NCBI GenBank assembly: GCA_043228905.1
Contig: JBHGNT010000979.1
Span: 1-13,233, forward strand
Source: Azolla caroliniana
Taxonomy: Eukaryota; Plantae; Polypodiophyta
Direction: 5' to 3'
DNA: 13,233 nucleotides
Numbering within the stretch: the stretch's first letter is position 1; each line of letters begins with the position of its first letter. The notes below the pieces were generated by a model. That model saw only the letters and a list, made by a program, of their open reading frames with translations. It did no database searches and had not been told where the DNA came from. Positions 131 to 13,233 of the stretch are shown here, piece by piece. The position numbers and the translations under genes are program-made.

Positions 131-508
131 TGACAGGAACACACGCTCCTGATGAACAACGCTCGGCCACAACCGAGCTTAGAATCAAAACACAGAAAAA
201 AAAACGGGAATGAATGCACGACACAATGGAGAGAAGAGAACACAAGATGTTAACGTGGAAAAACCCAAACTAGGGAAAAAACCACGACAGCCCACAGACT
301 ACAAACTATCACTATGTCAAAATGTACAAATGGTAAAGCACCGAAGCAACGACCTCGAGCTTTCTATCTTCGCCACAGGCGGCGGTTACAACAGAGGCAA
401 CAACCTCTTCCTCTCTCTCACTCTCTCTGTACACAGTTGCGCGCTCTAATCTTGCGCCAACAAGAATGACAACAACTCTCAACCAATGACTAAGTTTGCC
501 CTAAGTCA

Positions 509-516
509 TATTTATA
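509..516 (-). promoter_or_regulatory. Putative TATA box of the copia LTR
   Basis: TATAAATA on the minus strand in mid-LTR, overlapping a 10-bp inverted repeat (503-512 / 519-528). Confidence 0.5.
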
Positions 517-640
517 CTAATATGACTTTTCGGCTATTTACAAATATAGCCCCGATGGACTCTCAGAAAACATATTTACGAATATGTCTCTTCATCCGGT
601 GAGCACTTCTCACCGGGCCTTCACCATCCAACTCTTGCCA

Positions 641-724
641 GGTACTCGTCATCTGGTTCTCACCGGGTCTTCCGTAGCTGGGTACTCCTCATCTGGTTCT
701 CACCGGGTCTTCCGTAGCCGGGTA
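641..724. repeat. 40-bp tandem duplication in the copia U3 region
   Basis: 641-680 and 681-720 differ at 2 positions (GGTACTCsTCATCTGGTTCTCACCGGGTCTTCCGTAGCyG). A partial copy lies at 607-621. Confidence 0.9.
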
Positions 725-812
725 GTCCACATTCGGTTTCAGCCTCGGCCGAGTTTACTCATCAGTACTGTTCTTCTCACTTCCCATCCGGAGGGACCTG
801 TTTCCGAACAAA

Positions 813-826
813 CTCCCCCTTCACTC
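813..826 (-). other. Copia polypurine tract (PPT)
   Basis: GAGTGAAGGGGGAG on the minus strand, 2 nt before the TG of the 3' LTR, overlapping the pol stop codon. Confidence 0.9.
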
Positions 827-3800
827 CGGCATGGGATGTCTTACTAGTCCGATCTGCTTTCGGCATGCATCCAACTTGTCGGGTATCAGTACTTTGGTCA
901 GCATATCTGACCCGTTCTCAGCCGTGTGGATCTTCGTTAACACGAACTTCTGGTCATCTACTCTTTCCCGGATCCAATGATACCTTCGCTGGATATGCTT
1001 CGTCCAGGAATGGTAGGCCGCATTCTTAGCAAGGTGGATGGCACTTTGATTGTCGCAATAGAGTCGATATTCATCTTGCCGGATACCGAGCTCTCCGATG
1101 AAGTCCTTCATCCATAATATTTCCTTGCCGGCTTCCACAGCCGCCATGTACTCCGCGCCTTCGTGGTTGACAGCGCAACCGTCTTCTGCAGCCTCGACTG
1201 CCACGAAACACCTCCCCCTGCATATGTCATTACATACCCGAATGTAGACCGGCTAGTATCCACATCAGCCGACATGTTTGAATCGGTAAAACCGTCAAGT
1301 TGAGGTTTTCCGGAGCCGAATCGAAGACACATATTTGAAGTGCCCTTCAAGTACCGGAGTATCCATTTGACCGTGTTCCAGTGCTCCTTGCCGGGATTGC
1401 TCATAAACCGGCTCACCACTCCGACTGCGTATCCTATATCCGGTCGGGTACACACCATTGCATACATTAAGCTCCCGATGGCAGAGGCATATGGAACCTT
1501 CATCATATCCACCTTCTCTGCTTTTGTCTTCGGTCTTTGCTTACCGGATAACCTGCAGTTTGCCGGAAATGTCGATCCGACCGGTTTCGCATCTGACATG
1601 TTGAACCGCTGAAGCACCTTTGTCATGTATTTCTCCTGTGACAGCCACAATTGCTTCGTTGGCCGGTTCCGGATGATATGCATCCCCAACATCTGTCTTG
1701 CCGGACCCAAGTCTTTCATCGCAAAGGTTCGGTTGAGAGCCTTCTTCAGCATCCGTATTTTGGCTTGGTCCCGTCCGACGATCAACATGTCGTCCACGTA
1801 TAGAAGGAGTATCAGGAAGTCGCCTCCTTCGAACTTCTTCACAAACACACAGTGATCAGCCTGTGTCTTGTGGTACCCTTGATCGGTCATAAGGAGTCGA
1901 ACTTCCGGTACCATTGTCGGGGAGCCTGCTTCAGTCCGTACAGGCTCTTCTTCAACCGAAAAACCAAGCGCTCCTTCCCTTTCTCCACGAATCCTTCCGG
2001 TTGCTGCATGCAGATCTCCTCTTCGAGGTCACCGTGAAGGAATGACGTCTTCACGTCTAACTGCTCTACCTCGAGGTCCATGCTTGCCGCTATACTCAGC
2101 ACCGTCCGGATGGAGGTCATCTTTACTACCGGGGTTCATTATCTTCTTCTCCGACTCCCAGTCGGTGAGTGTCTTGTCCTCCATGAAGATAATATCTCGA
2201 CTCCGGAATACCTTCTTGTCGACCAGGTCCCACACTCGGTAGCCGAACTCATCGTCGCCGTAACCGAGGAATATGCATGGCCGGGTCTTCGGATCTAGTT
2301 TTCCTCTCCGGTCCTTAGCTACATGCACATACGCAAGACACCCGAATACCTTCAGATGCCGGTAGGATACTTCCTTACCGATCCATACTCTCTGTGGCGT
2401 GTCTCCGTCCAAGGGTACTGAGGGTGATATGTTTATCACATATGTCGCCGTTGACATTTCCTCTGCCCAAAACTTCTTGGGTAGTTTTGCATGCGCCATC
2501 ATACTCCGGACCCTCTCCATTATGCTCCAGTTCATCCTCTCGGCCAGCCTGTTTAGTTCCGGCGTCTTCGGCACGGTAAATTTGAGCCGGATTCCCTTCG
2601 AGCGACAATACTGCTCGAACTGCCCCCGGTATTTCACCTCCGTTATCTGCTCGAACCGCCTTCAGCTTCCGGCCAGTTTCTCTTTCCACTCTCGCGTGGA
2701 GCTCTTTGAAGACGGATAGCACCTGATCATTCTTCTTCAACGGTGTGGCCCACAACTTCCGGCTGTGGTCATCTATGAACGTCACGAAGTACTGTGATCC
2801 TGCATGTGACTTCGTGTCCACTTGACACACATCAGTATGCACCAACTCCAGTGGTGCATTACGTCTCATCGGTGGCCTTGGTCGGAAGGAGGTCTGGTTT
2901 TGCTTACCGACCAGACAATTAGTGCACTTCTCTAAGTGCACGTTCTTCACTGAAATGAGGTTGTCGTCTGCAAGCCTCTTCATCCCCTTCTCGCTCATGT
3001 GACATAGCCTTTTGTGCCACAGCTCACCGGCAGTGTCAGATGCCACATTCACTTCCTCCGGACATAACCGGGCATTCATCAGGTACAACATGTTTACCTT
3101 CCGGGCCCGAGCCACAATCAGGCTCCCTTTGCTGAACTTCATAACACCGTTCCGGATGCTACCCGTGTAGCCTTCATCATCTAGCCAACCGACTGATATC
3201 AGGTTCAGACGAACCTCCGGAACGTGTCAGACATCCTTCAGCAGCATCTTGCATCCGGTTGGTGTTGTCAGCCACACGTCTCCTATGCCGACAATTCGGC
3301 ATGTACCTTCATTCCCCATCCGGACAAAGCCGTGATCACCGGCTGAGTAGGATGAGAAGCATTTCCAATCCGGGGTAAGGTGGAACAACGCTCCGGAGTC
3401 GACCACCCAGGTCATCTCGTCACCGGCAAGGTTTATCTCACTCTCCTTGGTGATGAGCATCAACTCTTCTTCACTTGCCGCAATTGTCGTCGTTCCCTTC
3501 CGGTTCGGCCCCCTCCGGTCTTTACTATTTCGGTCCGATGTCTGCTTGGAATCGGTACCGTCGGTTTCCTTGTCTTTTTGGAAATGCCGACAGTTCTTCT
3601 AGAAGTGTCCCGGCTTGCCGCAATAGAAGCAAGTAGGTCTCCCCCTTGACTTTGACCGTATCCCTGACTTTTCCCGGTTTTGGGGACTATGGTTCCTTTG
3701 TCTTCCGCGTTCCAATTCGGTAAGGAGCGCTTTGGAGTCGGAGCTCGTATCCTTATCTTTCCGACGCGCCTCCTCATCTAGCAAGCTCGACTTCACTCTT

Positions 3801-4325
3801 GCTAGGGATAACCGTTTCCCTTCCGGCCCGGCGTTGCCCAAGGTGACAACCAACGTCTCCCAGCTATCTGGGAGGGAACCGAGCAGGAGTAGTGCTAGTA
3901 CCTCATTGGCAAGAGGTACTTCCAATGATGTTGCCTGGTGGATCAGCCCCTGGAAGGCATTCATGTGCTCCGCCATGCTGGAGCCATCTTGGTACCGGAG
4001 TCTTACTAGCTTCCGGAATACCGAAACCTGATTAACAACATTTTTGTTTTAAAACATAATGTCGATCTTCTCCAAGAGCTCATGAGCCTTGCTCTCTTCA
4101 TTGAAGTTGTTGTATAGACTCATGTCGATGAAACACCGTATGTACGCCGTTGTCTTTATGTGCATCACTTCCCATATCGTGGCATCGATTTTGTCCGGTC
4201 TCTTGTCCCCGAACTAAAACCGGCAACCAAAGATCTTTAACCACGAGCATGTCTCTCATCTTCGACTTCCACACCGAATAGTTGGAGCCGGTGAGCTTGA
4301 ACATGCCTCCCAACGAATCATCCAT
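821..4325 (-). pseudogene. Copia gag-pol polyprotein, disrupted by frameshifts, stops and an internal deletion
   Basis: Gag N-terminus KLTGSNYSVWKSKM. Zinc knuckle CFYCGKPGHF*KNC (TAG 3599-3601). Protease WVVDSGA (DSGA 3389-3400). TGA at 3227-3229. Integrase LWHKRLCH..CTNC, HTDVC, RADNGGE, AERMN. RT YVDD (1789-1800). RNase H GFTDS.., CDNQSAI, TKHI. The fragments are spread over several frames. Confidence 0.95.
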
Positions 4326-4340
4326 TTTCTGTGTCGTTTC

Positions 4341-4352
4341 GCTCTAATACCA
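4341..4352 (-). other. Copia primer-binding site (tRNA-iMet type)
   Basis: TGGTATTAGAGC, 3 nt after the LTR-terminal CA. One mismatch to the canonical plant TGGTATCAGAGC. Confidence 0.92.
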
Positions 4353-4355
4353 CTT

Positions 4356-4529
4356 TGACAGGAACACACGCTCCTGATGAACAACGCTCGGCCACAACCG
4401 AGCTTAGAATCAAAACAGAAAAAAAAACGGGAATGAATGCACGGCATAATGGAGAGAAGAGAACACAAGATGTTAACGTGGAAAAACCCAAACTAGGGAA
4501 AAAACCACGGCAGCCCACAGACTACAAAC
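4356..4529 (-). repeat. Copia 5' LTR remnant (3' 174 bp only)
   Basis: Matches 131-306, and similarity ends abruptly after ACTACAAAC (4529). Confidence 0.92.
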
Positions 4530-4887
4530 AACACGTTCGCGTTCACAAGTGGAAGGATCGCGCATAAATGGAAGCATAAGGGAAATTTTAGGGGTTTTTC
4601 AATGATTTTACAAAACACATTGATACCAGTATCATACAAGTTCAAACATACTATGAAAAAGGTTAAAAATCCACTATTTTCGTGATTTAGAAGTAACTAA
4701 AAAAAGACGAATTTCAAAAACATACATTCTCAATTTATATCACAAACTTTACAACCAATGTTATTTTATAAGAAACGATTTTTGGGAAATCATAAGAATT
4801 CAAAACACATGATTTTATATTACTCGATTTGTTACAAGCGGAATGTAGTTACACTTAATAGCCAAATATACATTCATGATCACTCCT

Positions 4888-7668
4888 TTACGGAGAATCA
4901 CTACTATAACTAATATACAATGACGATTCCTCCTCATCATCCTCGGATGTACCAATCAGTGCATTATCTTCGTCATAAACCAAATGGTTTGACTCTAGAT
5001 TATATGTAGCAGATCTCGTTTGCCTTTGACTCGAGCCACCTTGTAGACCTGGTAATTTTTCTTTTATTATATCTATTGTTGACTTCCTTAATCGTCCGGC
5101 TTTTGTAAGTGTGAAGTCGTACACGATGATATCCACATCAGAGATATCAAGGGTCGAGGTGTTACGAATGTTTCGCTTCCTCTTCCTACCTCCCCTTCTT
5201 GTTTGGCATTCAATCATCTCCAATGTATACTTACCTGTAAAAGCATTTGCACTTCTAGTGTTGTACCAATGAACATTTATAGACTTGATCGTGTTTTCTA
5301 TTTCATGCATTAGCACTTCTAGAATTTTACCAACCCAAAATTGGTGGCCATGTGAGTTCTCATCAGCCGGCGTTGCAATCAACATCCCCGCGGTGAGCTC
5401 TTGCAAATTTCCTTGCCATCTAGCTTCAGCTGCTTTGGTCATCCTTGGTCCCACATAAATGTCTCTTTGTTGTGGATGGACCAAGCTGTCATTAATCGCA
5501 TTTACTAGTCGCTCCGGACTTCTATTTACGCGATCATGTTGCAGCGACCATGTGAATGGCGTTTCCAAATTCCAATTATCAACAGATACACAATTGTCTA
5601 TAATTTCTTTCTGATCACTATAAAATACATCCCACCATGACGTGTCTTGTTGTGCGGCATATTTCTTGGCGGCCTCAATATGCTTTCTTTTTTCTTCTAA
5701 GGCTTGGAGCCATGACCGTTTTTGTTCTGATACCAAGTCGCTCTGCAACTGTCCTTTCTTCTCAATTGGCATTTGCTTAGCTCCATGGACAATTGTACTC
5801 GGCATACAAAGTAATAACTGGCAACCACCTTCAGGTTCCCATGTTGTAGAAGATGAATATTGTTTAGCATACAAAACTGTAGAACCACTTATTCCATTTT
5901 TCTTTATCAAAAAAATGTGATTGAAACTTATATTGTTTAACTGAGCAAGCACTTTAACATTCCCACCACCCCCATCTAATATATATCTCTTAAAGTCATA
6001 TACCTCCTTCAAGTGTAACACTTTTGGGCGTGGTGTATATGCATCACAAATGACATCAAATAGTTTAGGTAAAGTGAAAGCATCATGCCGAGACAACTGT
6101 CTGGAGAATGTGCTAAACATCTGATCTATATGGTCATGTGTGTGGCCAACCAAAAGGAAATTGACTTTCACTTTCCTAAACAATTCTAGGTTGACCAACA
6201 TACTTAGATAGCCAAATACAGTTGAATTTTTGTTCTCTCTAGCAGTATTGTCCAATTGAATGTATAGAACAGGGGGGAAAGGTTGTCCCCAAGACATCAA
6301 AACTCGGTGAATCACTGTAACTGTTAGGTTAGGGTCATTGTGAACATTGGGGTAAGTAATGAAGACGTGAGGTCGAACAGACCTATTATAAGCCAAGCAT
6401 CCCACCAAGTGCATTTGAACAAGGCACTCATCATTGACATCTTTGGGGAGCCTCCGCATATGCGGCAAGCATGTCTTCTTCTGGTCCATGCCATCTATCA
6501 TTAAGCACATGTATTGTTCAGGCCTCTTCAAACACTTCTCTCTATGATGCATCGCCTTCCTTCGTTCTAAGGATTGTGCCTCACGATGCTCTTGTAGTAA
6601 CTTCTTACTCGTATCCTTTTCCATTGATGTCTTTGCACCTTTAGCCAAACTTTTAAGATTTGCACAAATGGAGCAATACCCCATACGTACTTTACGAGGA
6701 ATAATAACATTTGAAAACTGAGCTCTCCATAATCTTGTGAATTGGCTATAGGTGATAGACTTATTACGTGAGCCCAGCATTTCAGATCGATAGACATCAT
6801 AAACTTCCCGACGGGTATAATTATCAGAAAGATGCATCCTACCCGTAGTGGGCATTACTTCACAATTTAACTGAAAGTAAGTTTTCATCCAGCCAATAGC
6901 TAGTCTTCCAATTGCACCTTTCATACTTGGAACCTCTTTACAATTGAGCATCTGATCCCCGCTAAGTAGACGTTGTTGTACTCTATGTAGCCGCATGTTA
7001 CTAACACATAACGCAATTTTGAATGCAACTCTACATATCTGTTGCGCATGGAAGATATAATACTCGAATGATACTTTGATCCCCGTACATTTGTTAGATA
7101 CTAGTTGCATATGTGATCCGAGGTAAGTGTCTTGCTCATCACCGGTCATCGAAAAATAGTATCGCCTTAATTCTCGCAACTTTGATTTTCCAATCATAGA
7201 CATACAACCACGGGCACACCATATTTTGTTGACATCAAATCCAATCTGTTTATCTGATGTCACCAAGCTAAATCTAGCCAGACGAATTCTTCGTGGGATT
7301 CTTCTAATATGCATAGGGCTCCCAGATTTCTCTTCCTGCATAGAGGTTGGTGTAACCTTGTTACAGTCTAATTCTCTGTTCTGACCATCGCCAATGTTAT
7401 TCAATGTTTCCTAGGCACTTCCTTCATTCTCGGTATCTTTATTAATATCGTATTCTTCAATAGAGAACTCTTCACATGTGTCATTATTTACATTCCCTGT
7501 AGATGAGCTCAGACAATATTCTTCGATAGAATATGGTGAGTCGGTCGAAAGACAATATTCTTCAATCGAATATGGTGACTCTGTTGACAAACAATACTCT
7601 TCAGTAGAAAACGATGGGTCTGATGACAAACAATATTCTTCAATCGAGAACGGTGAATCTTCACTCAT
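4888..7668 (-). pseudogene. Sola1-like (DUF7869-type) DDD transposase, 926 codons with one in-frame TAG at 7411-7413
   Basis: ORFs 7411-7668 and 4888-7404 share a frame (the latter's start is TTG). Motifs: ICRVAFKIALCVSxxR; CSIC (6664-6675) followed by His; IDGMDQKKT (D 6493-6495); YIQLDNTARENKN (D 6250-6252); FLLVGHTHDHIDQMFS (D 6124-6126); basic NLS-like RRGGRKRKR; acidic tail. Family assigned from remembered motifs. Confidence 0.75.
7510..7665 (-). repeat. 4 x 39-bp coding tandem repeat (13-aa acidic unit, S.(D/E)SP(F/Y)SIEEYCL)
   Basis: SEDSPFSIEEYCL / SSDPSFSTEEYCL / STESPYSIEEYCL / STDSPYSIEEYCL, plus a partial FSIEEY at 7450-7467. Confidence 0.9.
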
Positions 7669-7941
7669 GGCTTAAGGTCTAGAAAGGGCTCTCTAAGTTA
7701 TACTCCTCTCTAACCATATACTCCTCCCTAAACATAAACTTCTCTCTAAACAAGAGCCAAATCAATAGAATGTCTATATTATGTAATATTCTATTAATAC
7801 AATACATCTAAAAACTATTTTTAATAAAGTAATTTAACTTAAATTATCAATCATTATATAAACTAGATCTAAATGATGTTAAATCAAGTAAAATATAAAA
7901 CTAATCATTAACAAGCCTTGAATATGTTGGATTAATGTTAA

Positions 7942-8127
7942 AATCATTGGCTAATTAATGACACCCATTTTGATATAGAACGTCTCACTCATTGGTTCTT
8001 TAATGCTCACCATTTTAAATATTAGACTTATCAATCATTGGTTAATTCATGCCCACATCTTTAATACATAACATTTGAGAGTCATAAAAATTGTTGCTTT
8101 TAGTAATCAATCATTGGTACATTCATG
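7942..8127. promoter_or_regulatory. Degenerate ~45-bp repeats, each with an inverted CCAAT box, between the divergent genes
   Basis: TCATTGG-N5-T(A/C)ATG units with ATTGG at 7946, 7991, 8037 and 8113. A further ATTGG is at 8295. Confidence 0.55.
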
Positions 8128-8339
8128 AACCTCTATCATTGTCTCCTTCATAACCTTTGAAGTGATTGTAGGTTGTTATGACTATAAAAGATTGATCAAT
8201 ATGTTAGTTTGACTTTGTAATCATTAATACAATCATAAGTTACTCTAGTTAATGTGACTATGGTTACCAACTAACTATACTCAAAGTTACCAACATTGGT
8301 TAAGGTGACTATGGTTACTTTAACCATGGGTTCAATCCC

Positions 8340-8347
8340 TATAAATA
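8340..8347 (+). promoter_or_regulatory. TATA box of the plus-strand spliced gene
   Basis: TATAAATA about 25-30 nt before an initiator-like TCACTCA and 151 nt before the ATG at 8491. Confidence 0.6.
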
Positions 8348-8373
8348 GGAAGACCTCATCATATTTCACTCAC

Positions 8374-8457
8374 CAGAGCGTACAGAGCGTACAGAGCACA
8401 CAGAACGCAGAGAGCACACAGAGCACACAAAGCACTCAGAGCACAAAGCACGAAAGC
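8374..8457 (+). repeat. 9-bp minisatellite (CAGAGCACA-like) in the putative 5' UTR
   Basis: cagagcgta x2, cagagcaca, cagaacgca, gagagcaca, cagagcaca, caaagcact, then shorter units. Confidence 0.85.
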
Positions 8458-8490
8458 GCGATCTCCGCCTCCACTTCAACACGATCAACC

Positions 8491-8525
8491 ATGTCTTCAA
8501 AGAGAATCGAGCGCGAGGACTCCAG
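8491..8525 (+). CDS. Exon 1 of an unknown spliced gene (MSSKRIEREDS-R)
   Basis: ATG in AACCATG context downstream of a TATA box. Donor AG|GTAGGC at 8525/8526, phase 2. Confidence 0.6.
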
Positions 8526-8575
8526 GTAGGCCTCTGACACTGTGGACATTTTTGTAAATATGTTTCGTTTCTCAA

Positions 8576-9166
8576 GAACTCGATACGGTGTATCGAGTTC
8601 ATGTATACAATACAAATATTTAAACACGAACTCGATACGCCGTATCGAGTTCGTGTATAAATATTTGTATTGTATACATGAACTCGATACGGCGTATCGA
8701 GTTCATGTTTAAAGTGTAGGTTTTAAACACAAACTCGATACGCCGTATCGAGTTCGTGTTTAAAGTGTAGGTTTTAAACACGAACTCGATACGGCGTATC
8801 GAGTTCGTGTATAAATATTTGTATTGTATACACGAACTCGATACGCCGTATCGAGTTCGTGTATAAATATTTGTATTGTATACACGAACTCGATACGCCG
8901 TATCGAGTTCGTGTATAAATATTTGTATTGTATACACGAACTCGATACGCCATATCGAGTTCGTGTTTAAAGTGTAGGTTTTAAACACGAACTCGATACG
9001 CCGTATCGAGTTCGTGTTTAAAGTGTAGGTTTTAAACACGAACTCGATACGCCGTATCGAGTTCGTGTTTAAAACCTACACTTTAAACATGAACTCGATA
9101 CGGCGTATCGAGTTCCGGTTTAAAGTGTAGGTTTTAAACACGAACTCGATACGCCGTATCGAGTCC
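8576..9166. repeat. Array of 12 palindromes (ACACGAACTCGATACG-C/G-CGTATCGAGTTCGTGT) with two spacer types in both orientations
   Basis: 25-bp cores start at 8576, 8628, 8680, 8731, 8782, 8834, 8886, 8938, 8989, 9040, 9091, 9142. Spacer A = ATAAATATTTGTATTGTAT (19 bp), B = TTAAAGTGTAGGTTTTAA (18 bp). Order A',A,B,B,A,A,A,B,B,B',B (' = reverse complement). Confidence 0.97.
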
Positions 9167-9589
9167 CTGTATATAAGAAGGCTTTGAGAGAGAAAAATCG
9201 TTTATGGGGTGGAAATGATATCAAATTGTCTGGCAAAATCAGTCTTTTTTATGTTGACTTTACTTACTTTTAAAGAAATACATGCTCTAATTATAGGTGT
9301 TTTATGACCTACTTTAGCTTAATAAAGTAGAAAATGATCTACAAATTGCCTTCACTATGGCAAATTCTCCTCAATATAGGTTTAGAATCTATATAAGTCA
9401 TACCTACTATTTAAAAGAATATATAACCCGTTTTACTTATTACGATATATATTTTCTAGGTTGAATAGCCCTGCCTATAATAGATTTTTGAATATGTTAC
9501 TGCTCCTGGAAACTGTTCTTCATTATAATATACAACTTCAATCTACGTGACTGTCTAACTTATGTTTTTGCATATACTTTCTTAAATAG

Positions 9590-9827
9590 GTCGTTTGAGA
9601 ACCTGTCGGACCGACCCGTGAAGAAAATTAAGCTTCGCATACAAGGTTCTCCAATCGAAGCCCAGACCAAGGTAACTCCTGAGACCATGAAGAGAGGAAA
9701 AAAGCTTCTCTTTAACGAAGAGACAAAATCTCAGCCACATAGTGAAGTTAGCCAAAAGAAACTTGTCGCCGTTACTGGAGGCGAAGACCTTCCTGACCGA
9801 GATCTAACGGACAAGGAATTGTCATAA
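9590..9827 (+). CDS. Exon 2 of the unknown spliced gene (NLS-like PVKKIKL), truncated by the gypsy LTR
   Basis: Branch-point CTAAC 9555-9559, T-rich tract, acceptor TAG|G at 9589/9590. AG+G makes Arg, then the frame continues SFENLSDRP into the 9618-9827 ORF. The stop codon lies within the LTR. Confidence 0.6.
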
Positions 9828-9890
9828 CTAGACTCGAACCCATAACCTTTTGTTACACGGGTCGAGACTTTACCATTAGGTTATGAGTTG
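9820..9890 (-). other. tRNA-like module with Pol III A/B-box motifs at the LTR edge (not a functional tRNA)
   Basis: Minus strand CAACTCA-TA-ACCTAATGGTAAAGT-...-AGGTT-ATGGGTTCGAGTCTAGT-TATGACA: 71 nt with tRNA-like spacing. Anticodon and acceptor stems pair poorly. Confidence 0.55.
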
Positions 9891-9942
9891 TAATTTGAAG
9901 GATATTATTTTCATTTAGGTTTTATTAGGAAATTGATGTATA

Positions 9943-9990
9943 TTCCAGATTTCTCTGGAACATTCTAGAAACTTCAGGAGTATTCCTGAA
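9943..9990 (+). promoter_or_regulatory. Heat-shock element array
   Basis: TTCcaGATttCTCtgGAAcaTTCtaGAAacTTCagGAGtaTTCctGAA: 10 in-phase alternating nGAAn/nTTCn units, 7 perfect, ending 5 nt before the TATA box. Confidence 0.8.
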
Positions 9991-9995
9991 GACAC

Positions 9996-10002
9996 TATAA
10001 AA
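9996..10002 (+). promoter_or_regulatory. Gypsy LTR TATA box
   Basis: TATAAAA, 33 nt upstream of the self-primer sequence at 10029. Confidence 0.75.
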
Positions 10003-10109
10003 GGAGGCGCAAGGCATTAGTTCGAACCAAATCGGTTCAACGCCAGTCTTAAGCCTTCTAACTACTGTTGTATATCTTCCGTCATATAATACATATATCT
10101 TTCGCATCA

Positions 10110-10113
<4 letters not shown>

Positions 10114-10167
<54 letters not shown>
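10114..10167. repeat. (TC)27 microsatellite inside the gypsy LTR
   Basis: Uninterrupted TC run. Confidence 0.97.
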
Positions 10168-10171
<4 letters not shown>

Positions 10172-10306
10172 ACTCATTCCTTCTCTCAAAGTTCGACACC
10201 TCTCATAGTACTAATCCTTCTCTGTCTTAGTACTATTCCCCAACAATAGTACTAATCCTTCTTTTAGTACTAATTCCTTCTCTGCCTTAATAGAGTTCCT
10301 GACAGT

Positions 10307-10318
10307 TTGAACCGATTT
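10307..10318 (+). other. Self-priming primer-binding site
   Basis: TTGAACCGATTT is the exact reverse complement of AAATCGGTTCAA at 10029-10040. No TGG-type tRNA PBS is present. Confidence 0.8.
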
Positions 10319-10394
10319 TCCTCCTACTAGTCTCCCTCTTCCTTCTGTCTCTCTCCTTTCCTACTAGTCTCTTATTTCCCTTTTCCTTCATCCC

Positions 10395-11551
10395 ATGGCC
10401 ACCGTTAGCGCTGAAGAGTATCAATCCGTTTTCTCGGAATTTCAATGCTTGAAAGAGAAGTTTCATGCTTTGGAACAAGAAAATCAACGCTTGTTGGGGG
10501 ATCTTCAGCAAATTTCCTTAGAAAAGCAGCAAACGCAACAACAGCATGGGGAACTTGCGTTACGCGTGCAACAACTCGAAGCAACCATCGTAGCAATGCA
10601 ACAACAAGGGCACGGAGCACAAGGGATTCATAAAGAACCCAAGATTGGCCTTCCCACGAAGTTCGATGGAACGCGATCGCAGTTTAGAGGGTTTCTTAAC
10701 CAGGTACGGTTAGTTATTCAAATGCATCCGTCCCGATATCCCACCGATGCATCACGAGTGGGTTTAGTAGGCACGTTGTTAACTGGCTCAGCATTAGCAT
10801 GGTTCGCACCGCTACTAGAAAAGGAATCTCCAGTACTAAATAATTTTGAAGAATTCATAAGTGAGTTTAAAGCATGTTTTGGAGATACTGACAGCATAAG
10901 GACTGCAATCAACAAAATCCGGCGATTACGCCAAGGTGACCGTCCAGCCTCCGCATATGCTGCAGATTTCCGCCTACTCGCCGCCGATATCCCCTGGGAT
11001 GATCAAGCATTGATGGAGCAGTTCCGCTATGGTCTACGCAACGATGTCAAGGATTTACTCTTGACTTTCCCTGAAGAGCCAAAATCATTAACAGAAGCAA
11101 TCAGTCGAGCGGTCAGATGTGACAACCGCCTCTTCGAGCGACGTTCGGAACGACAATTTCAGATGCCGAGGGCAAGATCCGAGCCTACCTATGCCTCAAT
11201 GGTAGCGAAACCTTTTCAAAGGGAGTCACATAATGCGCCTCCAGTAAGTACTCCAACTCCAATGGAAATTGACACTACACGTCGTCGTGGGCCGCTATCG
11301 GAGGAGGAAAAGCAACGACGCCGAACAAACCGATTATGCCTTTAGGGCATATCGCGATAAACTGTCCCCATAGACCAAGAAGGCAGGTAAACCAAGTCAT
11401 TGTTAGTTCTGACTATACTAAACCCGAGTCTATGTCAGTAGGAATCTCTGATAATCCTCATAGTCATAATAGTCCTAATAGTACTAATAGTCCGAATCTC
11501 GCAAACAAATTTGATGTCCTTAGCCAATTAGAAGAAGAGTTAAACGACTAA
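10395..11551 (+). pseudogene. gag: Gypsy gag, with a frameshifting deletion in the zinc knuckle
   Basis: Coiled-coil N-terminus, capsid region (LRQG..ASAYAADFR..W.DQAL..QFRYGL..DVKD) and PMEID motif. The knuckle is split into RLCL* (TAG 11343-11345) and GHIAINCP in another frame that ends at 11551. Confidence 0.9.
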
Positions 11552-13233
11552 GTCCAGCCAAAATAGGAGCCGTTTGGTTGGACAGCCCTAGATCTGTGCA
11601 GCCCATTAGTGGTTCCATTCCCTCTAAGCAAGTTAGTGATGTGTTCGTAGTCCAAGTAGCAGTTAGTACTAAAAGTACCCCTCCAGTACATACCTTAGCC
11701 CTTCTAGATTCCGGAGCTAATTCTTGCTTCATGGATAGGAATTTTGCCCGAGCTCATCAGATATCTCTAAGAAAGCTCCCATGTCCAGCCTCAGTAGTAG
11801 TCATTGATGGTCGTCCCATTGCTTCTGGTAATATCATAGAAGAGTCGGAACCCGTTAATATTGTCCTAGATAACTTAACATGTGTAGTATCATTTAATAT
11901 TATTAGTATTCCAGAACATCCCATAGTTTTAGGATTACCATGGTTCGAGTTACATGACCCAGACATAGATTGGAGGACAAGGGAAATCCGGTTGCGACAA
12001 ACCCAAGGATCTACCCAGAAGGTTGCAACCATTTCGCTACGTCAGTTGCGTGAGGAAGGGCGCAAGGAGGAAATGTTTCTCTTTGCAATATCAGTACAAC
12101 CCTCCAGCACCACCAAAGAGGAGTCCACCGTTCAACTTCCCGAGAAGTATCGTCAGTATGCTGATGTGTTCGATAAAGTACAAGCCAACACACTTCCTCA
12201 TCATCGGCCGTACGACTGCGCCATCGACTTACAACCGGGAAAAGAGCCGCCATGGGGGCCGATCTACAATTTGTCACCAACCGAGCTAGAAGTCCTTCGA
12301 GCCTATATAGAGGAGAATTTGGAGAATGGTTTCATTCGGCATTCGAAATCTCCAGCCGGCGCACCCATTTTCTTCGTCAAGAAAAAAGATGGCTCGCTTC
12401 GACTCGTTGTAGATTACCGTGGCTTGAATAAGGTCACAGTAAGAAATAGGTATGCTCTTCCCCTTATCTCAAGTCTTTTAGAACGGATCAACGGTGCCAG
12501 GTTCTTCACGAAGATCGACTTACGAGGAGCCTATAACCTCGTACGGATCCGACCAGGAGATGAATGGAAGACCACGTTTCGCACCAGATATGGGCACTTC
12601 GAGTATACGGTCATGCCGTTCGGACTCACTAATGCGCCGGCAGTCTTCCAGCACATGGCGAATGATATATTTCGAGACCTCTTGGATGATTTTTTGATCA
12701 TCTATTTGGATGATCTACTGGTTTATTCAAAGACCCAAGAAGAACATGATTCTCATGTACTATTAGTACTAAAACGACTTCGAGAACATGGTCTGTATGC
12801 AAAGTTAGAGAAATGTAGTTTCGGGTGCAACCAAGTGGAGTTTCTCGGCTATGTCATCTCCTCAGAAGGCATATCTATGGACCCAGCCAAGGTCAAAACG
12901 GTGATAGAATGGCACACTCCGCGTTCGGTGCGGGATGTGCAATGCTTCCTAGGCTTTGCAAATTTCTACCGGAAGTTCATACAAAATTACTCAAAAATTG
13001 TGCTGCCTCTCACACAGCTCACCAGGAAGGGACAATCATTCATTTGGTCTAAAGAGACGGACATGGCTTTCGAGAGTCTTAAGAAGGCGTTTACATCAGC
13101 TCCAATTTTAGGTCATGTGGATCCGGAAAAACCATTCATTATCGAAGCTGATGCATCGGATTTCGCATTGGGGAGCATTCTGTCACAACAGGGTAACGAC
13201 GAGAAGCTACATCCTGTGGCTTTCCACTCCCGT
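11524..13233 (+). CDS. pol: Gypsy pol (protease, RT, start of RNase H), open to the window end
   Basis: Frame read by hand with no stop after TAG 11521-11523: LLDSGA (11701-11718), VLGLPWF, LPHHRPYDC, FVKKKDGSLRLVVDYRGLN, MPFGLTNAP, YLDD (12703-12714), FLGFANFYRKFI, EADASDFALG. Missing from the ORF track, probably because it has no stop in the window. Confidence 0.96.
11539..11590 (+). promoter_or_regulatory. Putative -1 programmed ribosomal frameshift signal
   Basis: G_TTA_AAC (11539-11545) in the gag frame inside the gag/pol overlap, then a 6-nt spacer and an 11-bp stem GTCCAGCCAAA / TTTGGTTGGAC (11552-11562 / 11573-11583). Confidence 0.75.

Follow-up and report, generated by a model that had tools for sequence, protein, structure and literature searches.

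A helically phased palindrome array in a land-plant DNA transposon: candidate sites for a predicted ParB-like protein fused to a DNA methyltransferase

Introduction

In the window analyzed here, a 13,233-nucleotide stretch of Azolla caroliniana DNA, twelve near-perfect palindromes are separated by spacers of only two kinds, and both the palindrome centers and the spacers occur in either orientation. How such an array arose, and what it might do, was raised by an initial annotation that described it as CRISPR-looking, attributed it to fold-back template switching or recombination between palindromes, and suggested that it could act as phased dimer-binding sites, as cruciforms or as a hypervariable code between element copies. 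Missed at that stage were the host transposon and its ParB-methylase gene, whose predicted intron contains the array. Bacterial ParB, Noc and KorB proteins have palindromic sites. Here, we argue that the array probably consists of helically phased, parS-like candidate sites for the element's own ParB-methylase, whose methylase would mark the element.

Results

The array lies within a DNA transposon

The window is made up of nested plant transposons, whose features are listed below with counterparts in 33 metagenome loci (L numbers). These loci were collected by exact match to the palindrome core and are short-read contigs whose similar names suggest a single campaign as the likely source, including several near-duplicates.

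131..4529, minus strand: Copia LTR retrotransposon with RVT_2 and rve domains (Pfam); its LTR copies at 131-306 and 4356-4529 are 97% identical, and the DNA transposon is inserted into the LTR
4530..4565, plus strand: left terminal inverted repeat (TIR), about 35 bp, interrupting Copia LTR copy 4356-4529; the LTR match ends at 4529
4888..7668, minus strand: DUF7869 transposase gene, RNase H-like, DDD, likely Sola1 (Pfam E 1e-51), with an in-frame stop at 7411-7413
8340..8347, plus strand: TATA-like box of gene 2, inferred from sequence; a similar box lies ahead of exon 1 in L007
8491..8525, plus strand: predicted exon 1 of gene 2, a ParB-like/DNA amino-methyltransferase gene, with an in-frame join to exon 2; the same ATG..CAG/GTAG layout is found in L007 and L031
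8526..9589, plus strand: predicted intron 1 (GT..AG, 1064 bp), which contains the array; in 17 of 33 loci the distance from the array to the downstream exon 2 is 245-684 bp
8573..9173, no strand: palindrome array of 12 sites, each with a 23-bp core (10-bp half-site, 3-bp center, 10-bp half-site), 51-52 bp or 5 helical turns apart, with spacers A and B in both orientations
9590..9819, plus strand: start of exon 2 of gene 2, cut off by the Gypsy insertion; 64% identical to the start of the L011 protein
9820..13233, plus strand: nested Gypsy LTR retrotransposon (gag at 10395-11345) that breaks gene 2 and pushes the right end of the DNA transposon outside the window

The host element was identified as a TIR DNA transposon because its terminal 36 bases (4530-4565) recur as inverted pairs, with both ends on one contig in L005, L008 and L022; overall, they were found as 18 ends with 0-5 mismatches across the window and 14 loci. 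A 4-bp target-site duplication was seen in none of the three two-ended contigs, which are high-coverage and likely collapsed, and the junction was not recovered by placing read contigs on the LTR. The DUF7869 transposase, which we take to belong to the Sola family, and an AAC terminus as in Sola1-1_Ec32 make Sola1 the likely class of the element. Across 54 transposase sequences D385 and D427 are invariant and D307 is nearly so, and Foldseek analysis of the whole protein returned nothing at E <= 0.001, with weak matches to transposases and integrases (best E 1.9e-3). Among named homologues of the DUF7869 protein, the nearest is that of Ceratopteris (54%), ahead of those from Riccia and Adiantum, which makes a fern the likely host. 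The copy in the window is broken in both genes; the transposase frame of L032 is open for longer, and gene 2 reads openly from ATG 8491 via GT 8526/AG 9589 up to the Gypsy insertion, with the frame at 9819 continuing in other copies in four of four public runs.

Several further features of the element were observed. A beta-rich domain at the transposase C-terminus (window 4888-5400, residues about 670-790) was matched by Foldseek to the BAH-domain reader EBS (prob 0.98, E 0.066), which suggests a chromatin-reader domain on the modeled transposase, and the N-terminus (window 7411-7668) carries a 13-residue acidic repeat, encoded by a 39-bp tandem repeat, that is also present in L032. A conserved subterminal motif, which lies at 4620-4636 in the window and some 100 bp inward from each of the 18 element ends, shares GTATC with the array half-site and forms a short palindrome with a 2-bp center at most left ends. 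Between the divergent genes, ATTGG (CCAAT-like) core repeats occur at about 46-bp spacing, and the predicted 5' UTR of gene 2 holds a 9-bp tandem repeat; window 7939-8127 and 8374-8445 cover both. Directly after the splice donor, the motif GTACGGAC is found in 11 of 33 loci (among them L007 3606, L018 865 and L031 1181), with a variant at window 8543-8550.

Array and gene 2 are linked across related elements. Gene 2, transposase or TIR sequences accompany the core in 26 of 33 loci; wherever gene 2 is present (17 loci), the array precedes its exon 2 by 245-684 bp. The near-complete element L007 shares the layout of the window: transposase (minus strand), array, gene 2 (plus strand) and right TIR. 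Gene 2 lies inside the TIRs and opposite in strand to the transposase in L007, L031 and the window, and the element measures about 9 kb with a 35-bp TIR. In Riccia, the ParB-like/methylase gene R1sor_010796 has a locus tag adjacent to that of the DUF7869 gene R1sor_010795. No core was present in viral contigs, no relatives of the transposase or ParB-like domain were confirmed there, and none of the ParB-like domain were confirmed in prokaryote genomes.

Flipped centers and spacers point to template switching

When recomputed from the sequence, the palindromes center on 8588, 8640, 8692, 8743, 8794, 8846, 8898, 8950, 9001, 9052, 9103 and 9154, and their central bases (G,C,G,C,G,C,C,C,C,C,G,C) match the initial annotation exactly. 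The spacers were likewise reproduced as only A or B, each also found inverted, in the order A',A,B,B,A,A,A,B,B,B',B with periods of 52 (A) and 51 (B). The description of 16-bp arms stood in part: seven of the 12 units pair perfectly along all 16 arm positions, but the remaining five carry point changes, and the unit conserved between families is not the 16-bp arm pair but two 10-bp half-sites around a 3-bp center. All 24 half-sites in the 13.2-kb window fall inside the array, and searches allowing up to 5 mismatches in 22 yielded 206 real core sites versus none in a shuffle of 142,382 bases.

The likeness to CRISPR did not hold, as the spacers are not unique and the setting is a eukaryotic transposon. 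A CRISPR array is ruled out by the two spacer types, both orientations and this transposon context. Among the 20 window ORFs, the five scanned for cas genes were a transposase, a gag, an RT, an integrase and one without a match, and neither CRISPR RNA nor any other Rfam family matched within window 7600-9900.

Among 22 junction readings, all eight possible junction types between center and spacer orientations are present, so the orientation of a center is decoupled from that of its spacer, and slippage alone therefore could not have built the array, as originally argued. Template switching or recombination would flip both centers and spacers, and homogenize the arms, because inverted arms flank each palindrome and spacer. 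Homogenized arms together with inverted spacers are described as a signature of template switching between inverted repeats (PMC8604942). Both were found here: arm positions 12-16 differ between families and yet pair within a site at 0.53-0.68 versus 0.27-0.41 expected, and spacers of opposite orientation coexist in 8 of 33 loci, including low-coverage L002, L007 and L025. Together with the eight junction types, these observations support the fold-back origin proposed at the outset. The suggested hypervariable code fared worse, since conservation lies in the core and in its helical spacing, and near-complete relatives showed no recombinase gene. Spacer order does differ among the related contigs L017, L018, L028 and L031, but short-read assembly of palindromes can also shuffle units. 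The flip-flop is thus likely a by-product of template switching and not a code. Since a symmetric site is indifferent to the direction of its center or spacers, flips could accumulate while selection would retain only core and phase.

The same data bear on the idea that a site-specific recombinase reads the array as an invertible switch or barcode, or that the array is an assembly artefact of the window copy, which we rate as the least probable of the readings considered. The full set of junction types and the variable order among related contigs would be expected from either, and the artefact is also suggested by the absence of any contig spanning the window array. In four public runs, all 30 bins of 8250-9850 were covered, and unit order is that of this copy's assembly alone; a joint from 9028 to 9182 in the run contigs was not counted as length variation because the repeats map ambiguously, and summed contig depths were not taken as copy numbers. 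Two gene starts, 85% and 67% alike, also stand head to head across one array in L028 (547-1301) and L032 (9432-10020), which reflects either copies that recombined at the array or a chimeric assembly; both loci were kept in the counts though possibly chimeric. Against an artefact, mirrored arms of the window array are 94% and not 100% complementary, individual units carry private point changes, and both orientations recur in the three low-coverage loci named above. A recombinase switch was rejected, as no recombinase ORF was noticed among the scanned window ORFs or in near-complete relatives and the asymmetry of the core amounts to just 1-3 bp.

The core and its helical spacing are conserved between families

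Conservation across 165 distinct sites reaches 92-99% at half-site positions 2-11; the 3-bp center is variable, and no base exceeds 59% at positions 12-18. As sites were called by likeness to the core, this contrast between core and arms is partly built in; identity of the core across families is not. The same core was found in 16 families defined by their flanks, with unrelated spacers. Three loci with perfect cores (L006, L007 and L026) encode transposases separated from that of the window by 1.2-1.3 substitutions per 4-fold site, and outside the array the window intron gave no blastn match to the five related introns tested.

Spacing was assessed for 206 sites on 34 sequences (the window and 33 loci), giving 172 gaps, of which the 154 of 80 bp or less were used. 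Neighbor distances cluster at 31-33, 40-41, 50-52, 62-64 and 72-73 bp, and 147 of 154 lie within 1.5 bp of a multiple of 10.3 (28% expected), under a null that treats gaps as unrelated by descent for loci that are not independent. After collapse to 33 spacer clusters or 39 family-by-distance pairs, phasing remained (mean cosine 0.71, p 5e-5 versus uniform spacing), with 32 of the 39 pairs in phase and 7 off phase. Two phases also occur within single families (41 and 51; 31-32 and 40-41), where the spacers are unrelated. Core and helical spacing are therefore what is conserved across elements, and of the functions initially offered it is the phased array of dimer-binding sites, as candidate sites, that gains support from phasing, core conservation and the Noc/ParB fold matches described below.

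These results weigh on two readings in which no protein recognizes the array. A functionless minisatellite, generated neutrally by slippage and template switching, appears very unlikely, even though flips and arm homogenization require no selection (PMC8604942) and the window copy is dead. Such a satellite would not be expected to share its core across 16 flank-defined families whose spacers are unrelated, with no alignment of the remaining intron among the five tested, nor to show helical phasing, and the observed/expected CpG ratio is 2.8 in the array versus 0.45-0.65 in the rest of the element. Core identity, CpG ratio and phasing together largely refute a neutral satellite.

Slightly less improbable, though still hard to favor, is that the array acts as a structure, forming DNA cruciforms or intron-RNA hairpins that could serve as a small-RNA source or decoy or as a splicing brake. 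Single-strand folding of the array is strong (-272 kcal/mol, z = -46, with 0 of 20 shuffles equally stable), and the arms are homogenized beyond the core. However, symmetry would suffice for folding, yet one fixed 10-bp sequence has been kept across 1.2-1.3 substitutions per silent site; moreover, a structural role has no Rfam match and leaves distances quantized at 10.3 bp unexplained.

Gene 2 joins a predicted ParB-like fold to a DNA methyltransferase

Gene 2 is truncated at 9819 in the window, and its architecture was read from relatives, where models predict a ParB-like fold fused to a beta-class N6/N4 DNA methyltransferase. Later exons match N6_N4_Mtase (Pfam, E 1e-8 to 1e-10), and a homologue matches the beta-class enzymes RsrI, MboIIA and CcrM in the PDB. 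Motif IV precedes motif I (FxGxG), which is the beta-class order, with DIPY followed by DLFSGTG in L011, L007, L030, L033, L004 and L024. Eight database homologues have D-I/F/L-P-Y or DIPH (five), DPPY (one) or no motif IV that could be found (two). The methylase may be impaired, because motif IV is mostly DIPY/DFPY/DLPY/DIPH and not DPPY. Homologues in which ParB-like and methylase parts are fused are named from Chara, Ginkgo, Adiantum and Riccia; in gene models of the Chara proteins P0072 and P0073 the module occurs twice in tandem.

On the N-terminal exon of gene 2, Pfam reported no ParB family, and searching PDB sequences with the ParB-like alignment yielded a single match (E 0.76), so that assignment of this part draws on structure prediction. 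The L011 ParB-like segment was modeled from 99 sequences with a pLDDT of 90 and a pTM of 0.83, and all Foldseek matches listed at E <= 0.001 were Noc/ParB chains (best 9.8e-6), with about 290 columns of the N-terminal and helical domains aligned. Comparison of the model with structures (VIA) gave PadC (Z 9.6, rmsd 3.2, 99 aligned), KorB (Z 8.6, 13.1, 168) and pNOB8 ParB (Z 8.4, 4.6, 208). The helical domain alone (147-303) showed a weak ParB-type match to the KorB DBD (Z 4.7, rmsd 4.2, 106 aligned) and ParB DBD (Z 3.6).

A homodimer was predicted through the N-terminal domain, scoring 0.48 versus 0.00 for the best control, with at least 64% of contacts shared between runs and a pLDDT of at least 71. 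Among microbial test proteins, 21 of 30 homodimers but none of 23 monomers attained this mark; among eukaryotic ones, 17 of 29 homodimers and none of 30 monomers did. As only one of seven eukaryotic homodimers without an older solved relative attained it, the predicted dimer may stem from likeness to ParB.

Such a fold invites comparison with a true ParB-parS clamp, which would load at the array, spread with a nucleotide switch, and organize, pair or tether excised transposon DNA, leaving methylation secondary. The roughly 290 columns aligned with Noc/ParB, the dimer predicted through the N-terminal domain and the conservation of R39 and N138 in the ParB-like domain are consistent with this, but we consider it improbable, at about the level of the neutral minisatellite. 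The arginine box of ParB, which binds CTP, is GxxR; in the L011 protein it reads GGSHS, with GGxH 90-93% conserved and then mostly S, not R, in the commonest variants listed. CTP clamp behavior is doubtful because of this alteration. In addition, no ParA-like ORF was noticed among the ORFs of at least 90 aa in near-complete L007, three frames of which were scanned against Pfam.

The transposase as an alternative binding protein

Phasing would suit any bound protein, and the array might instead be an internal enhancer at which the transposase assembles or synapses the transpososome. Internal or subterminal transposase sites exist, as in the Mu enhancer and CACTA subterminal repeats. Here, the shorter motif that shares GTATC with the half-site lies about 100 bp inside both ends, and five deletion derivatives (L005, L008, L021, L022 and L027) lack gene 2 and keep perfect cores, with spacings that are mostly long. 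These derivatives are about 2.9-3.5 kb where both ends are seen, and retain both TIRs or one TIR. Their perfect cores fit use of the sites in trans and also fit a transposase role, and the derivatives were themselves found via the core, which tempers their support for the transposase. The same five loci carry a piece resembling the Gypsy LTR of the window.

Three other observations argue against a transposase enhancer. The TIR lacks the core, and a separate repeated motif, GTGGAA, is found at the ends; the array lies upstream of gene 2 exon 2 in all 17 informative loci; and inverted-repeat arrays adjoin ParB genes in the unrelated Plavaka transposons (bioRxiv 10.1101/2025.02.11.637652). Overall, a transposase enhancer is unlikely, though less so than the structural, neutral, clamp and switch readings above.

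Discussion

The reading that we favor is that a dimer of the ParB-methylase would bind each 10-3-10 palindrome, and that spacing of 3, 4 or 5 helical turns would place neighboring dimers on one face of the DNA and allow cooperative loading. The tethered methylase could then mark the element's own DNA, with 6mA more likely than 4mC because of the D-x-P-Y motif, and the purpose would probably be to counter host silencing or to tune the two nearby divergent promoters. Of the steps that we infer, binding is the best supported, and methylation and its anti-silencing or autoregulatory purpose are less certain.

Parts of this arrangement are already known, as ParB-methylase genes have been published from Ectocarpus Sola1 and inverted-repeat arrays from beside red-algal Plavaka ParB genes. 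Ectocarpus Sola1-1_Ec32 carries an opposite-strand accessory gene with ParB-like and N4C/N6A methyltransferase parts, whose product was proposed to bind the element that encodes it and to modify it (PMC12477816). Compared by description, the two elements share the opposite-strand ParB-like/methylase gene and termini that start with AAC (AACCG in Ectocarpus, AACAC here). They differ in that the brown-algal element is 21.5 kb, with a 282-bp imperfect TIR and a 4-bp TSD, whereas the land-plant element is about 9 kb with a 35-bp TIR; and the description of Sola1-1_Ec32 includes no target site or array, whereas the window element has a defined, phased candidate site. In Bostrychia, Plavaka PAG3 likewise has a transposon-borne ParB-like gene with adjoining tandem inverted-repeat arrays that were proposed as binding sites (bioRxiv 10.1101/2025.02.11.637652). 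That element belongs to EnSpm/Plavaka, its ParB is fused to a 2OG oxygenase with the methylase as a separate gene, and neither phasing nor flipping of orientation appears in the main-text account of the arrays.

Other systems provide more distant parallels. VANC proteins of Arabidopsis bind motif arrays in introns and other non-coding parts of their own VANDAL family (PMC5735166), and the window element would resemble them in pairing an element-encoded protein with arrays of short motifs in introns, binding here being proposed. VANC removes 5mC and its 8-9-bp motifs diverge between families, as described there, whereas the window element has a 23-bp palindrome conserved between families and a predicted protein with a writer domain. 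With bacterial ParB, Noc and KorB the likeness lies in the predicted fold, the predicted dimer and a repeated palindromic site; the differences are an altered arginine box, no ParA seen, a methylase fusion and a eukaryotic transposon with introns. DAM-carrying retrotransposons also place prokaryotic-type amino-methyltransferases (NPP-type DAM) on transposons; they are retroelements, their account describes neither ParB nor a site array, and DAM-LTRs are reported absent from Streptophyta (bioRxiv 10.64898/2026.05.21.726589). ParB-HTH methylase fusions are listed in chlorophytes and chytrids in a review (PMC4738411), and four further sources served as background only (PMC8885841, bioRxiv 2021.02.12.428880, PMC5751038 and PMC4455052). 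Literature searches turned up neither a ParB-methylase transposon from a land plant nor any account of phasing in such arrays, although supplements and Repbase may hold more.

What is new is a defined and conserved, helically phased 23-bp candidate site across deeply diverged elements. Two recent algal genome papers propose self-binding or self-modifying transposons with ParB-like genes and, in the parts describing them, give no site (PMC12477816; bioRxiv 10.1101/2025.02.11.637652); because the candidate site here is a defined palindrome, self-modification becomes testable with one protein and one oligonucleotide, and the system might find use as a compact tool for targeted DNA marking.

A broader reading is that an ancient streptophyte transposon lineage carries into the plant nucleus a bacterial centromere-like system in which a ParB clamp loads on the phased intron array, spreads and writes 6mA or 4mC. 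We regard this as possible but doubtful; if true, land plants would gain a non-5mC mark targeted by sequence, together with a read-write module that is portable. Land plants have been reported to be without abundant genomic 6mA (bioRxiv 10.64898/2026.05.21.726589). Should the methylase be active, these elements would supply land plants with localized 6mA or 4mC and would join VANDAL as a second transposon system that modifies itself.
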